From a virus, in UHGV virus genome UHGV-0134280: 39,537 nt of DNA. One strand, 5' to 3'. This document shows, in pieces, positions 8,402 through 35,601 of the stretch (within the stretch, counting starts at the first letter, position 1; every line of letters begins with the position of its first letter). A model generated the notes under the pieces. The model saw nothing but the letters and a program-made list of their open reading frames with translations. It did no database searches and was not told where the DNA came from. A program made the position numbers and the translations under genes.

Positions 8402-8667
8402 TTTACATCGCACTCCTCTTGTGCCATAGTAATCGGGCACTGGCAAAATCCAGTGCCGGGATTGGTCTCCCGGATTACTACAGAGGCACATATGCCGCAT
8501 AAGCGGTTTTTTTATGTGTAAAGCGCACCTATTCTATGGTGGGCTGTGTGGGGGCACCGAAAGGTGCGCCGGGTTCCTTTGTAGCCGGTAAGACCAACTC
8601 TGCACAGTTCACCACCATCTGATTGGTCTCAGCGGTGGTGATTAACCTAACTACAAAGGTGATCGCC

Positions 8668-9360
8668 ATGAATACCAAACCTTCCATCTTTTCCTTTGAG
8701 TCATCCTGCCAGATCCGTATGTTCATGATTGACGGAGAACCTTGGTTTGTCACCAAAGATGTGTGCAATGCTTTGAATATTGATGTTACACAAGCGAGAA
8801 AACTTGATAAAAAAGGCTGGAACAAAAAGGGGCTGCATTCAATACAGACCCCTGGTGGAATACAAGAACTATCCATCGTTTCAGAATCAGGTCTCTACAT
8901 CCTTATTCTGCGTTGCAAAGAGGCAATGACAGAGGGAACGAGAGCATTCAGATTTCTTGAATGGGTTACAGGTGAGGTTCTTCCTCAGATCCGCCGCACC
9001 GGAAGCTACATTAAAAACTCGCTCCCGCAGGAAGAACGCATAAAGATGGTTGCCGACCAGGTTGCCAACGCCACGGCGTCAGCAGTGATGCAGGCAATGA
9101 AGATAGAGAACAAAACCTACAGCGCCCCACTGAAGCCCGGCTACCGCAGTCTGATTCACTCGCCGTCTGGTGTTCTCGGCCTGACGGAGAACTCACTGCT
9201 GATGAATCTGCTGAACCAGTTACAGGAAGACGGGCACGACGTATCGGGCGCGGCGGCGGAGCTGACCACCATGTTCTGCTACATCGTCGGTGTGAGCAAA
9301 TGCCTGCGTGATATCGAGACCCACGCGGAGTACATCAACGATAAAGCAGGATTTTTCTGA
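8668..9360 (+). CDS. Ant-like antirepressor (Bro-N domain plus KilAC/ANT C-terminal domain)
   Basis: N-terminal pattern IRMFMIDGEPWFVTKDVCNAL typical of Bro-N; C-terminal domain paralogous to 7264..7521; start trimmed to MNTKP. Confidence 0.7.
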   Translation: MNTKPSIFSFESSCQIRMFMIDGEPWFVTKDVCNALNIDVTQARKLDKKGWNKKGLHSIQTPGGIQELSIVSESGLYILILRCKEAMTEGTRAFRFLEWVTGEVLPQIRRTGSYIKNSLPQEERIKMVADQVANATASAVMQAMKIENKTYSAPLKPGYRSLIHSPSGVLGLTENSLLMNLLNQLQEDGHDVSGAAAELTTMFCYIVGVSKCLRDIETHAEYINDKAGFF

Positions 9361-26439: not shown

Positions 26440-26516
26440 GTGGCATTAGCTCAGCTGGACAGAGCAACCGCCTTCTAAGCGGTTGGTCGCAGGTTCGAAT
26501 CCTGCATGCCACGCCA
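26440..26516 (+). tRNA. tRNA-Arg (anticodon UCU)
   Basis: Cloverleaf folded by hand: 7-bp acceptor stem GTGGCAT/ATGCCAC, D-arm, anticodon loop CTTCTAA, T-loop TTCGAAT, discriminator G and encoded CCA. Confidence 0.85.
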
Positions 26517-32667: not shown

Positions 32668-33468
32668 TTACTTGATAAATCCTGCCGCCTTTCCCCGCCT
32701 GTATTCCTCCATCAGCCACTGCGCCGGTGTTATTCCCCCAAGGGTGGCGGCGTTAGGCATGCACCCGAAACTTCGCCCTGGTGGATGGTAAACGTCTCTC
32801 CCTGTGTCCGGAGGCGTACTCATGGGTTCTGGCTTTGCCTGTATGCTGATCACCGGATCGGGTATCTGCTGTCCGGAAGCTACCTTTTTCGCCCAATCAT
32901 CGAGCAGCCTGCGCGCGTGTTTCTCAACCTCAATCTCGCTAAGCTGGCGCTGATACATTGCACGGCGGGTATCACATACGACCCAGTACATAACCGGATG
33001 TCGCCACGGGAATCTTTCGGGACCACCAGGATATAAACTTTTTTCCTTGCTGTACCGGTGAAACTCCGCCATCACATCGTCAATGGTGACGCCAAGAACC
33101 ATCTTGCTGTCTTTACACCACTTGATGAATTGCCCTGGCGACGGCCAGAACGGAGATTCACTGGCGCGGGCGTGGCGCATACCAGCAGAAACCTGTTCAC
33201 GGGTTCGGATCCCCCCTTCGGCAAACGCAGCAATCCACTGCTGTTTTGCAGCAACTTCCTGCTCTGGCGTCTTCAGGTTGGTTACTACTGCCGCCGGAAA
33301 CAGTTGTTTCAGCTGTTTGAAAAGGGCATCAACAAGCCTCTCTGCTGACATGTTCACCACATTGTCATTGTTGACGTACTGATGCTCATAACCTGACATG
33401 CGAGAAAGGGCTTCTCCGTCACGGTTTTGTATCGCGGTAAAAACGTTGTTCACAAGAAATCCTCCCAC
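32668..33468 (-). CDS. Replication protein P-like helicase loader
   Basis: Clear similarity to lambda P as recalled: QQWIAAFAEGGIRTREQVSAGMRHARASESPFWPSPGQFIKWC against EIRRQWVLAFRENGITTMEQVNAGMRVARRQNRPFLPSPGQFVAWC. Confidence 0.8.
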   Translation of the reverse strand: MGGFLVNNVFTAIQNRDGEALSRMSGYEHQYVNNDNVVNMSAERLVDALFKQLKQLFPAAVVTNLKTPEQEVAAKQQWIAAFAEGGIRTREQVSAGMRHARASESPFWPSPGQFIKWCKDSKMVLGVTIDDVMAEFHRYSKEKSLYPGGPERFPWRHPVMYWVVCDTRRAMYQRQLSEIEVEKHARRLLDDWAKKVASGQQIPDPVISIQAKPEPMSTPPDTGRDVYHPPGRSFGCMPNAATLGGITPAQWLMEEYRRGKAAGFIK

Positions 33469-34265
33469 GCTTCAGGGCTGTTCCAGTGCGGAACGTTGTT
33501 ATCAGGTAATGTTGATTGCTTCTGTCTGCTAATCTGCAGCCGCCTTGCCAGCTTCTGCTCCCACTGTGCCTGATGGTATGCCTTACCCTCAGCCATCCAG
33601 TAAATTCTGAACTCTGCAAGCTCCTGTGCCGTTGGCAGGCTGTCCAGGTAGATCCCCTGCAATGAGCTTTTCCGAAGAAAGTCATCTGATGGCTGCCATT
33701 GTTCATGCATGACAAATTTGCCTAATTGCCCTGGCCCACCAGGAGGAACAAAGTTATTCATCACGGCGTTGTTTGCGCCGGGGTCATGAGGCACAGAATC
33801 CCCGCTTTTTGTCCTGCTCTCCCTCTCTTGGTTAAATGACTGGTTATATGACTGGTTCTGGATCCCGTTTTTGGGATCATTCAACATCCCGTTTTTGGGA
33901 TCATTCAACATCCCGTTTTTGGGTATATTCCCGTTTTCGGTAACATTACCGTTTTCGGGTTCATTACCCCCTTCCCGGTTGCCTTTAATGTTCCCGTTTT
34001 TGGTTATATTAAGAGAGAAAACCCGCACTCTTTTCGTCGCACCCTTTCTCTCTCCGGTATCTGAAATAAGCCCCATTTTCATGAGCGATATAAGCCCGGC
34101 CTGCACGGTTTTTTTATTCAGGCAAGTGTCTTTAACGAGGCGTTCTATGCTGGGGTAGCAGAGGTTATATTCATCGGCTCTGTCAGCCATCGAGAGCAGT
34201 ATGAGCTTTAATGACGAGCTACCTGGATCTGTCTCCCAGGCCCAATCTGTTGCATGTCTGCTCAT
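33450..34265 (-). CDS. Replication initiator, O-like (N-terminal winged-HTH, iteron-encoded Asn/Gly-rich linker, DnaT-like C-terminal domain)
   Basis: Directly upstream of and overlapping the P-like gene; internal peptide repeats NGMLNDPKNG encoded by DNA iterons; GGAG RBS. Confidence 0.65.
   Translation of the reverse strand: MSRHATDWAWETDPGSSSLKLILLSMADRADEYNLCYPSIERLVKDTCLNKKTVQAGLISLMKMGLISDTGERKGATKRVRVFSLNITKNGNIKGNREGGNEPENGNVTENGNIPKNGMLNDPKNGMLNDPKNGIQNQSYNQSFNQERESRTKSGDSVPHDPGANNAVMNNFVPPGGPGQLGKFVMHEQWQPSDDFLRKSSLQGIYLDSLPTAQELAEFRIYWMAEGKAYHQAQWEQKLARRLQISRQKQSTLPDNNVPHWNSPEAWEDFL
33861..34017. repeat. Candidate origin iterons (ATCCCGTTTTTGGGATCATTCAAC and variants, 5-6 copies)
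   Basis: Tandem near-identical repeats of about 24 bp inside the O-like gene, each with an internal dyad ATCCC...GGGAT; arrangement mirrors ori-lambda inside gene O. Confidence 0.6.
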
Positions 34266-34586: not shown

Positions 34587-34610
34587 GAAAAGACCGCCGG
34601 ATGGCGGTCT
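34587..34610 (-). terminator. Terminator hairpin agaccgcc/ggcggtct after the Cro-like gene (tR1-like position)
   Basis: 8-bp GC stem with 4-nt loop, followed on the minus transcript by UUUUC. Confidence 0.5.
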
Positions 34611-34631: not shown

Positions 34632-34862
34632 TCATGAGTAGAAGAAGTATGCCAGTTCTGCTTTTGAGCGCAGCCATTGTCTTGTTTTACAGGCTTTAAA
34701 AAGCCCATTCATCAATACCTTACCTGGCATTTTGCGCTTACCTGTTAAGTGAGTCTGGATATAGTGACTCGTCGTTCCGGCTTCCTGTGCGAAGGCTTCA
34801 CGCTCATCCGGAGTAAGTGCAAGCCAGTGCTTTTTGAAATCGAAATGTCCGTTATCGCTCAT
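34632..34862 (-). CDS. Cro-like HTH regulator (XRE family)
   Basis: 76 aa; HTH-like segment QEAGTTSHYIQTHLTGKRKMPG; first gene of the early operon divergent from the repressor. Confidence 0.55.
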   Translation of the reverse strand: MSDNGHFDFKKHWLALTPDEREAFAQEAGTTSHYIQTHLTGKRKMPGKVLMNGLFKACKTRQWLRSKAELAYFFYS

Positions 34863-34906
34863 AGCTATTGCCTGATATTTATTTCAGATAATAAATATTC
34901 ACCCAT

Positions 34907-34961
34907 AAGGTAACAAAAATCAAGGATAGTTACCTATGAGGTGCATTTACCTGTTGGGTAA
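34907..34961. promoter_or_regulatory. Operator array in the divergent immunity region (overlapping TTACC/GGTAA sites K and L plus a half-site)
   Basis: AGGTAAC at 34907-34913, TTACC-TATGA-GGTgc at 34929-34945, TTACC-TGTTG-GGTAAT at 34945-34961; between the Cro-like start (34862) and repressor start (35017). Confidence 0.55.
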
Positions 34962-35016: not shown

Positions 35017-35601
35017 ATGAAAAGTATCCAGGACGTCCGCAGGCAAAATCTCAACGACTTGATCGACCGTGAATTCAATGGTGTTCAGACGCGGATGGCA
35101 GAAAAACTTGGAACTCAGGCAAATCTGGTAAACCGCTGGGCTCTTGGCAAGAAGGTTATCGGCGACCAGGTTGCGCGAAAAATTGAAGCTGCCGCCAATA
35201 AACCCCGTAACTGGCTTGATATCGATCGCTCGCTTTCTCAGGAAGGTTTTCAGCCTGTCGGCCCAAGCGACATTGGTCAGCTGGCGGCTCACAACCTGGA
35301 ACGCTGGATGAGCGAAAGCCGCGACCTTTCAACACAGGGAAAACTTCACCGCGCATCCGGCGTCGCCCAGGTAACAATCAGCCGCCTGTTAAACAATGAG
35401 GTCAGCGTTTCCATTTCCACCCTGGAGAATGTTGCATCCGCATTCGGGCGTCACGGCTATGAATTACTGATTCACCCGCACGACCCTGCGACCATCAACT
35501 ATGACCGCTCGCGCTACGCATTGTTACCCGAAACCGAGAAAGCAAAGATCGAAAGTTACATTGAATTTGTCATCAACCAGAACGAAAAAAATAAACAATA
35601 A
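35017..35601 (+). CDS. Immunity repressor candidate with two XRE-type HTH domains and no S24 peptidase domain
   Basis: HTH-like segments around residues 20-55 and 105-150; no LexA-like Ser/Lys autocleavage module seen; no obvious RBS (possibly leaderless). Confidence 0.65.
   Translation: MKSIQDVRRQNLNDLIDREFNGVQTRMAEKLGTQANLVNRWALGKKVIGDQVARKIEAAANKPRNWLDIDRSLSQEGFQPVGPSDIGQLAAHNLERWMSESRDLSTQGKLHRASGVAQVTISRLLNNEVSVSISTLENVASAFGRHGYELLIHPHDPATINYDRSRYALLPETEKAKIESYIEFVINQNEKNKQ

Follow-up and report, generated by a model that had tools for sequence, protein, structure and literature searches.

A probable lambda/phi80-type replication origin within the initiator gene of a phiV10-like phage

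The iterons of the lambda origin lie inside the O gene, between the segments that code for the N- and C-terminal domains of the initiator (PMC7466680). Here we ask whether the same arrangement explains a set of short repeats within a replication gene of the virus genome UHGV-0134280. We analyzed the whole stretch of 39,537 nucleotides (hereafter, the window), which corresponds to a phiV10/epsilon15-like podovirus genome or prophage of Escherichia coli (genus Uetakevirus). An original prediction, made from the letters alone, had proposed that an iteron array inside an O-like gene marks a probable lambda-type origin of replication. In the window, selection on the DNA and selection on the encoded peptide could both account for such repeats, and the question must be answered with homologues. 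We find that the repeats are conserved as DNA, that they are inherited together with the N-terminal domain of the initiator, and that their core is shared with the annotated initiator-binding sites of phage phi80. We therefore consider it probable that the array is the initiator-binding part of a lambda/phi80-type replication origin embedded in the initiator gene.

The array consists of six iterons with the core CCC-RAAAAC-GGG, spanning positions 33862-34006 within the initiator gene, on the antisense strand of the window. Its predicted location was borne out by three approaches. Tandem Repeats Finder detected 2.6 copies of a 24-bp unit at 33862-33923 (100% identity) and, overlapping these, 3.1 copies of an 18-bp unit at 33913-33968. 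A repeat search found six in-register copies, with starts at 33862, 33886, 33910, 33928, 33946 and 33991, so that the start-to-start spacings are 24, 24, 18, 18 and 45 bp, all multiples of 3. Finally, a scan for the core (CCCGTTTTYGG, at most one mismatch) gave 6 matches in the 39,537 bp, all 6 inside the 145 bp of the array; 1.2 matches per window were expected from shuffled sequence, and none of 100 shuffles reached six. The array had been described as five to six tandem copies of a unit of roughly 24 bp. The count of six holds, but the uniform period does not: only units one and two, with part of a third, follow the 24-bp period (GATCCCAAAAACGGGATG on the coding strand), the others being 18-bp units, with one copy set apart by non-repeat sequence (iterons 1 and 2, 45 bp start-to-start). 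Similarly, the ATCCC...GGGAT dyad is perfect in two copies only (33862-33877 and 33886-33901); the other four have degenerate outer arms, although all six retain CC(C)-N6-GG(G). The array encodes the peptide repeat NGNIPKNGMLNDPKNGMLNDPKNGIQ at residues ~88-135 of the 271-residue protein, within the sequence ITKNGNIKGNREGGNEPENGNVTENGNIPKNGMLNDPKNGMLNDPKNGIQ, and peptide repeats of the NGMLNDPKNG type had thus been correctly described. All six sites share one reading frame, with the PKNG/ENG peptide repeats in phase. DnaA boxes are absent from 33700-34100 and not enriched in the window, which fits an origin driven by a phage initiator. No RNA family of Rfam was detected in the array region.

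The repeats leave traces on the opposite strand as well. Two terminator-like hairpins on the plus strand (33872-33891 and 33896-33915), antisense to the initiator gene, arise by pairing between neighboring iterons, GGGAT of the first with ATCCC of the second, followed by a run of five T. We rejected these as functional terminators; the dyads of the iterons, together with the T-run, probably produce them incidentally. An antisense open reading frame (33871-34158, plus strand, 95 amino acids) mirrors the array with GSFNIPFL repeats, and is annotated as a "putative membrane protein" in the record CP025713 (phage YDC107_2; 1877-2119 of the retrieved locus). In that same record, 1-nt indels in the A-runs of the iterons break the initiator reading frame and are most likely sequencing errors.

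To separate DNA from peptide, we used an alignment of the N-terminal domain of the initiator to collect homologues from one-genome-per-species contigs. The resulting 80 loci, with N-domains 40-87% identical, span Enterobacterales, Vibrio, Pseudoalteromonas, Marinomonas, Acinetobacter, Desulfovibrionaceae, Polaromonas and Sphingomonadales. The core CCCAAAAACGG, with at most one mismatch, occurs 139 times in nucleotides 240-600 of these genes (4.9/kb), compared with 11 times outside this segment on the same strand (0.05/kb) and 5 times on the opposite strand (0.02/kb). With a looser pattern, at least two sites are found at the same position of the gene in 68 of the 80 loci, several of the exceptions being truncated genes; the repeats are thus present in genes whose N-domain is conserved, and the absence of repeats from orthologues with conserved protein, which the original prediction had named as evidence to the contrary, is not observed. 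The reading frame, in turn, is not maintained. The sites are distributed over frames 0, 1 and 2 in the ratio 82:34:23, at least two frames are used in 26 loci, and sites often lie 17, 25 or 26 bp apart. Read as CCC AAA AAC GGG, the core encodes PKNG in the window; as ACC CAA AAA CGG GAT, it encodes TQKRD in Edwardsiella phage GF-2 and in the E. coli prophage PPompW; as GAC CCA AAA ACG GAA, it encodes DPKTE in Vibrio phage H20. One core recurs in all three frames, at the same position and on the same strand; the repeats are conserved as DNA rather than as peptide, which excludes a role for the peptide repeat alone. A frequency matrix built from 170 distinct sites reads AAyAnnCCCAAAAACGGGA, and the flanking positions -6 and -5, which were not used in selecting the sites, are A in 93% and 91% of cases.

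The type of site also differs between the two clades of N-domains. In the clade with longer N-domains (31 loci, mostly Acinetobacter), there are 83 C-type (variant) sites and no A-type site, whereas the 49 loci of the other clade contain 125 sites of the A-type and 14 of the C-type. The variant site reads CCAAYAAnKG, and one of its forms, GTCCCAACGTTGGGAC, is a perfect palindrome; the Acinetobacter-type site is CCAACAATGG. The CCC-N6-GGG geometry is retained in both clades. The site type thus co-varies with the N-domain clade, and in 68 of the 80 loci the sites are co-inherited with the N-domain. Together with the loss of the site where the N-domain differs (see below), this gives indirect support for specific binding of the iterons by the N-domain.

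The initiator itself has a composite layout. Pfam identifies an HTH_36 domain at residues 18-67 (1.8e-10) and a DnaT DNA-binding domain, PF17948, at residues 184-252 (1.2e-15). The protein thus consists of a winged-helix domain (residues 1-87), a linker of about 90 residues encoded in part by the iterons and the adjoining 12-mers, and a DnaT-like domain (184-252); the array, at codons ~88-135, lies between the two domains. An AlphaFold2 model of residues 1-100, based on a 64-sequence alignment, was obtained with a predicted local distance difference test (pLDDT) score of 87.8 and a predicted template modeling score of 0.78, and forms a winged helix up to about residue 85 (helices H3-11, H17-28, H40-47 and H51-63; strands E67-74 and E80-85). 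Residues 91-100, where the iteron-encoded peptide begins, have pLDDT below 50 and are predicted to be disordered. In a structure search of BFVD, the closest predicted viral structures are other phage replication proteins with HTH_36, and lambda O is not among the top 50 matches. Foldseek against the PDB returned only generic MarR-like winged helices, and a sequence search of the PDB gave no match below E=0.2. The protein is 97% identical to phiV10 p43, annotated as "replication initiation protein", and the DNA of the gene is 97-99% identical to phiV10, phiv142-3, EC.W1-9 and others; no origin is annotated in the phiV10 record. The description of the gene as O-like is consequently right for role and position, but not for family, since it combines HTH_36 with DnaT and is not of the Phage_rep_O type. 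In public records the gene goes by "primosomal protein I / DnaT". The match to DnaT is confined to the last ~70 residues, and this label misdescribes the initiator, as it refers to one domain and hides a probable role in origin binding.

The two halves of the protein have different relatives. A tblastn search of phage genomes split the initiator in two: residues 1-150 match the initiators of Edwardsiella GF-2, Vibrio H20, Acinetobacter AP22 and the E. coli prophage PPompW (36-50% identity), whereas residues ~154-258 match those of epsilon15, SPN1S, Tyrion, TL-2011b and Rac YdaU, in which the N-terminus is different. A repeat array with a related core lies ~270-480 nt into the gene in all four N-domain relatives, and is absent in all four relatives that share only the C-domain (epsilon15, SPN1S, Tyrion, TL-2011b). 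The epsilon15 and SPN1S initiators have a 14-mer of their own in common, in two copies, GTCTGCCAAGCGTC and GTCCGCAAAGCGTC. The copies lie ~290 nt into the gene, at a distance of 43 bp from each other (1473-1529 and 1338-1394 of the retrieved epsilon15 and SPN1S loci, respectively), and could be the sites of these initiators. Among 72 full-length homologues of the N-domain, HTH_36 is found in every one, combined with C-domains that are DnaT-like in 6, Phg_2220_C in 5, DnaA_N in 2, and mostly without a Pfam match. The gene downstream is lambda P in 15, and otherwise DnaB, IstB/DnaC-like, AAA_25 or other. Since C-domains and downstream partners vary next to a constant HTH_36, we suggest that the N-domain and the array constitute an origin-recognition module, and the C-domain and the downstream gene a helicase-recruitment module. 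Lambda O and P are known to divide the work in this way.

The most direct case of exchange is GF-2. Residues 137-280 of its initiator are 62% identical to residues 156-299 of lambda O (E 2e-67), and a lambda P gene follows; residues 1-136 correspond to the N-domain of the window family, with five of its iterons and with the GAAYC units described below. The junction falls just past the position of the lambda AT-rich tract, so that the module replaces residues 1-155 of lambda O, including the N-domain, the four iterons as well as the AT-rich tract. In GF-2, both kinds of N-domain and iteron module thus prove interchangeable in front of a lambda O C-domain.

How does the array compare with known origins? 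As at ori-lambda, it is located within the initiator gene, with the N-domain encoded on one side and the C-domain on the other (lambda iterons occupy O codons ~117-145); the coding strand is purine-rich; a P gene is coupled through a 4-nt overlap; and the gene order fits an early operon beside a divergent repressor. Lambda iterons, of the ATCCCTCAAAACGAGGGA type, are likewise inverted repeats with the same TCCC/GGGA arms and a central AAAAC/A-tract, although the spacer between their arms is 3 bp longer (CCC-N9-GGG). They differ further in that their spacings are not multiples of 3, so that lambda has no peptide repeat, and in the 40-bp tract of ~25% GC, which the window does not have. The window initiator also belongs to another Pfam family, with a DnaT-like C-domain. 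The likeness to phi80 is closer at the level of the site. Four gp15-binding sites are annotated in phi80 gene 15 (AAACCGGAAACGGGAAG, ATTCCCGAAAACGGGAAAA, CTTCCCGAAATCAGGAAT and CTTCCCGAAAACGGTAGA; 8664-8740 of the retrieved phi80 locus). They lie inside the gene, right after the N-terminal DNA-binding domain, and a gene of the lambda P family (gp14) follows. The core CCC-GAAAAC-GGG and the CCC-N6-GGG geometry are common to both, as seen when comparing phi80 TTCCCGAAAACGGGAA with ACCCGAAAACGGT, TACCGAAAACGGG and ATCCCAAAAACGGGAT of the window. The phi80 origin differs in having four iterons with a period of ~21 bp, as against six at 24, 18 and 45 bp in one frame; in having AAGAAC repeats and an AT-rich run where the window has tandem 12-mers; and in its initiator, since gp15 is Phage_rep_O by Pfam and the window protein is HTH_36 plus DnaT-like.

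Other comparisons are more distant. The Shiga toxin (Stx) phages 933W and P27 have six iterons in the O gene, the extra sites adding 13 amino acids to O (PMC7466680). As in the window family, extra iterons lengthen the linker of the initiator, and iteron number differs among related phages; the Stx origins nevertheless have a true lambda O family initiator, lambda-type iterons and a copy number fixed at six, whereas the window type is polymorphic in steps of 8 amino acids. E. coli DnaT resembles the window protein through PF17948 only (C-terminal ~70 amino acids), with no similarity over the full length, and the winged-helix N-domain, the iterons and the phage replication context are all foreign to it. 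We also considered an iteron-plasmid origin of the RepA, RepE or pi type, and rejected it: such origins have iterons outside the rep gene, DnaA boxes and a Rep protein with two winged helices, whereas the iterons of the window are internal to the gene, 33700-34100 is devoid of DnaA boxes, and the winged-helix domain is single. Plasmid Rep structures gave only weak matches (E >= 0.014).

The promoter-distal flank of the array carries a second repeat, not included in the original prediction: the 12-mer TGGTTAAATGAC, repeated 2.4 times and adjoining the last iteron according to Tandem Repeats Finder. It belongs to a family-wide 12-13-nt repeat, GAAYCnnnCAW, found after the last iteron. In 48 of 72 loci, two or more GAAYC units come after the last iteron, and most members carry two or three, often followed by an A-rich run; in H20 the same element has a period of 13 nt, which places the second copy in another reading frame. 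We regard the 12-mers as a candidate unwinding or auxiliary element. Beyond them lies a purine-rich run, at the place occupied by an A-rich tract in many homologues and in lambda. Over 33800-33862, the coding strand is 67% purine, compared with 48% window-wide (plus-strand pyrimidine 0.667 and 0.516, respectively). Across the family, mean GC content dips to 0.35-0.38 between +30 and +60 from the last site, from a baseline of ~0.45. Two further elements recur in the family: ACAC right after the last site (22 of 72 loci, and also lambda and phi80), and AAGATCW within 120 nt of it (14 of 72 loci, ~9x the background rate; AAAAGATCT in phi80). ACAC after the last iteron and an AAAGATCT motif downstream, both seen in phi80, are shared by many family members but not by the window, whose lineage has two 12-mers and the purine-rich run, and neither ACAC nor AAGATCT.

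The number of iterons varies among close relatives. Phage BP9 has one 24-bp unit fewer, and phiV10 one 12-mer more, than the window. The initiators of E. coli prophages range from 263 to 311 amino acids and contain MLNDPKNG 1, 2, 3, 4 or 7 times (7 in the 311-residue variant), some variants carrying block duplications. A scan of IMG/VR yielded 80 loci, all from near-identical E. coli prophages, which we used for copy counts and not for diversity. Of the 78 that could be scored, 9 have a single 24-bp unit, 64 have two, 4 have three and 1 has five. The linker that holds the sites is tolerant, and every spacing in the window is a multiple of 3, so that gain or loss of a unit alters the number of iterons and at the same time adds or removes peptide repeats of 8 or 6 amino acids, with the frame preserved. 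This variation parallels that between lambda, with four iterons, and the Stx phages, with six (PMC7466680).

Several observations must be set against the reading of the array as an origin. The initiator has no Phage_rep_O (PF04492) match in Pfam, and BLASTP finds no similarity between it and phi80 gp15 (E=23). Comparison of the N-domains with hhalign gave a probability of 25%, which rose to 36.6% once the alignments were deepened (72 columns, in a sensible topology) and leaves N-domain homology to O/gp15 unproven. Since the six sites of the window share a single frame, the window alone cannot separate selection on DNA from selection on peptide. Composition and nearest-neighbor stability profiles reveal no AT-rich tract of lambda grade in the window: the 12-mer region, at ~39-40% GC, ranks no lower in stability than the bottom 6-8% of 30-40-mers in the window, and the least stable 40-mer (33983-34022, in the top 1.8%) is found across the array, at its promoter-proximal edge. 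The pR-like promoter candidate upstream matches the consensus weakly (9/12), and the number of sites in the scan was not above that of shuffled sequences. Finally, we found no published binding or origin activity for this phage or family, with the limit that older papers on lambdoid origins and subscription papers may have been missed.

Alternative explanations for the array can be weighed against the same evidence. The sites may bind the initiator but serve mainly in regulation (titration, autoregulation of the operon, copy control of the handcuffing type, or exclusion of related phages), with unwinding and helicase loading taking place elsewhere. Such a role would be in line with the lack of a strong AT-rich tract next to the array and with its variable copy number, which titration sites should tolerate more easily; moreover, only four of the six iterons of Stx phages are bound efficiently, so that some copies can be auxiliary (PMC7466680). 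However, in a GF-2 O-P pair that is lambda-type in all other respects, the module replaces the lambda N-domain, iterons and AT-rich tract together, leaving no other candidate origin in the gene. In addition, the conserved GAAYC 12-13-mers, often with an A-rich run, are promoter-distal in most members, like a DNA-unwinding element, and no further copy of the site exists in the window. We thus consider a mainly regulatory array unlikely.

The repeats could instead be the by-product of a disordered linker rich in Asn, Gly, Pro and Lys, expanded by slippage, in which any selection would act on the peptide. The in-phase PKNG/ENG repeats and spacings in multiples of 3 in the window, the changes of copy number in steps of 8 amino acids, and the predicted disorder at the start of the iteron-encoded peptide are all as this explanation would have it. 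It is nonetheless strongly disfavored by the homologues, which carry the core in all three frames (PKNG, TQKR, DPKT), on one strand only and about 100-fold more densely than the flanks; the core persists at ~40% N-domain identity with CCC...GGG kept, and its variant tracks the N-domain clade. We consequently deem it very improbable. Even less probable, in our view, is that the repeats bind some protein unrelated to the initiator, such as a host factor or a phage repressor, packaging or partition protein. We found nothing specific in its favor. In Enterobacterales, Vibrio, Pseudoalteromonas, Acinetobacter, Polaromonas and Sphingomonadales, the sites accompany the N-domain irrespective of the neighboring genes or the C-domain; they change with the N-domain clade, are absent when the N-domain is replaced, and have equivalents in phi80 annotated as bound by gp15.

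An origin embedded in the initiator gene therefore remains the reading that we favor. The position of the array, the coupled lambda P homologue, the conservation at the DNA level, the phi80 core and the GF-2 exchange all support the gene-within-origin arrangement that had been proposed by analogy with ori-lambda. It would be an origin on the classic plan and essentially ordinary; it differs in the Pfam family of its initiator, which is not Phage_rep_O by sequence, in lacking a strong AT-rich tract, and in the conserved 12-mers that adjoin the array. By analogy with lambda (PMC7466680, and general knowledge of that system), binding and bending by the initiator, melting, contact with and recruitment of P, and firing of the origin could proceed as follows. 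Rightward-type early transcription from the immunity region would express the initiator, whose N-terminal winged-helix domains would bind as dimers to the six CCC-RAAAAC-GGG dyads. With an A5 tract in each dyad, binding would wrap or bend the DNA into a complex resembling the O-some. A neighboring segment would then be destabilized, the best candidate being the promoter-distal 12-mers with the purine-rich run. Finally, the DnaT-like C-domain would recruit the lambda-P-type loader with the host DnaB, and possibly touch the exposed single strand.

The match with phi80 raises a broader and more speculative possibility. The core CCC-RAAAAC-GGG, with parts of its flank (ACAC, the GAAC/GAAYC repeats and AAAGATCT), might represent an ancient origin "address" of initiators that are now dissimilar, although we hold this only tentatively and think it rather less likely than not to be true. 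Such an address may be shared by initiators of the Phage_rep_O type (phi80) and of the HTH_36 type (the window, and Gamma-, Beta- and Alphaproteobacteria). Two readings would fit: either the N-domains are deep homologues and the site has outlasted their similarity, or the origin was captured by a different winged-helix domain. If the address is real, unrelated phage types in one host, for example phi80-type and phiV10-type phages in E. coli, could cross-recognize each other's origins or compete for them.

The surroundings of the gene (Table 1) fit an early operon beside a repressor: the repressor gene is on the plus strand, followed on the minus strand by the cro-like gene, the small gene, the initiator and P. 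The GTG start of the loader gene, which we placed with the help of the 786-nt annotation of phiV10 p44, overlaps the TGA stop of the initiator (GTGA), so that the loader lies directly downstream and is translationally coupled. Transcription from the pR-like candidate would traverse the origin. The terminator-like hairpin upstream of the operon sits at the position of lambda tR1, and an equivalent is annotated in phiV10; expression of the replication genes would need read-through of this hairpin or antitermination.

Table 1. Coordinates of the features at and around the initiator gene, in window positions
Feature	Position	Strand	Basis or remark
Replication initiator gene, 271 amino acids	33450-34265	-	Open reading frame, Pfam, phiV10 p43 match
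Iteron 1, first in direction of transcription	33991-34006	-	Coding strand TAACCAAAAACGGGAA
Iteron 2	33946-33961	-	Coding strand AACCCGAAAACGGTAA
Iteron 3	33928-33943	-	Coding strand TTACCGAAAACGGGAA
Iteron 4	33910-33925	-	Coding strand TACCCAAAAACGGGAT
Iteron 5, perfect dyad ATCCCAAAAACGGGAT	33886-33901	-	In 24-bp unit of strain-variable copy number
Iteron 6, last, perfect dyad ATCCCAAAAACGGGAT	33862-33877	-	Adjoins the 12-mers
Tandem 12-mers, candidate unwinding or auxiliary element	33829-33857	-	AACCAGTCATAT AACCAGTCATTT AACCA on coding strand, after last iteron
Purine-rich run	33800-33828	-	Coding strand AAGAGAGGGAGAGCAGGACAAAAAGCGGGG
Lambda-P-type helicase-loader gene	32668-33453	-	Pfam Phage_lambda_P 1.5e-56; open reading frame
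DUF1064 gene		-	After the lambda P homologue in gene order
Small Cys-rich gene	start 34281	-	
Intrinsic-terminator-like hairpin, strong, 8 pairs (6 GC)	34591-34610	-	Between cro-like gene and initiator operon
Cro-like gene	34632-34862	-	
pR-like promoter candidate, TTGTTA-17-TATTAT	34888-34916	-	Consensus scan; ahead of cro-like gene
Repressor gene, two helix-turn-helix motifs	35017-35601	+	Open reading frame, Pfam; divergent, opposite the promoter candidate

Other parts of the window and of the public records deserve mention. Rfam identifies isrK, an Hfq-binding RNA, at 8437-8513 (plus strand, 74.7 bits) and, immediately after it, a C4 antisense RNA at 8532-8619 (plus strand, 78.6 bits); the two make up an antisense immunity pair of the P1/P7 type. 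It also identifies a tRNA gene within the phage genome at 26440-26513 (plus strand, 71.7 bits). The immunity and replication module of Uetakevirus is also found in PP488543 (phage BP9, 138 kb, classified as Vequintavirus), near the end of the record, and in PP350014 (PH444), a record of 115 kb. Both records may be chimeric assemblies or contain contaminating prophage DNA.

For the phiV10/epsilon15-like (Uetakevirus) phages and prophages, these results provide a concrete predicted origin, of use in annotation, in the construction of replicons and for phiV10 reporter phages. They also suggest a rule for predicting origins in many Proteobacteria: phages with an HTH_36 initiator would carry a ~20-bp site, AAyAnnCCCAAAAACGGRA, ~260-540 nt into the gene of that initiator. 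The family offers a case of dual coding, in which an array of binding sites is kept as DNA in three frames while the linker peptide is free to vary. And the core held in common with phi80 raises the question, modest in scope, of how origin sites and initiator domains co-evolve.

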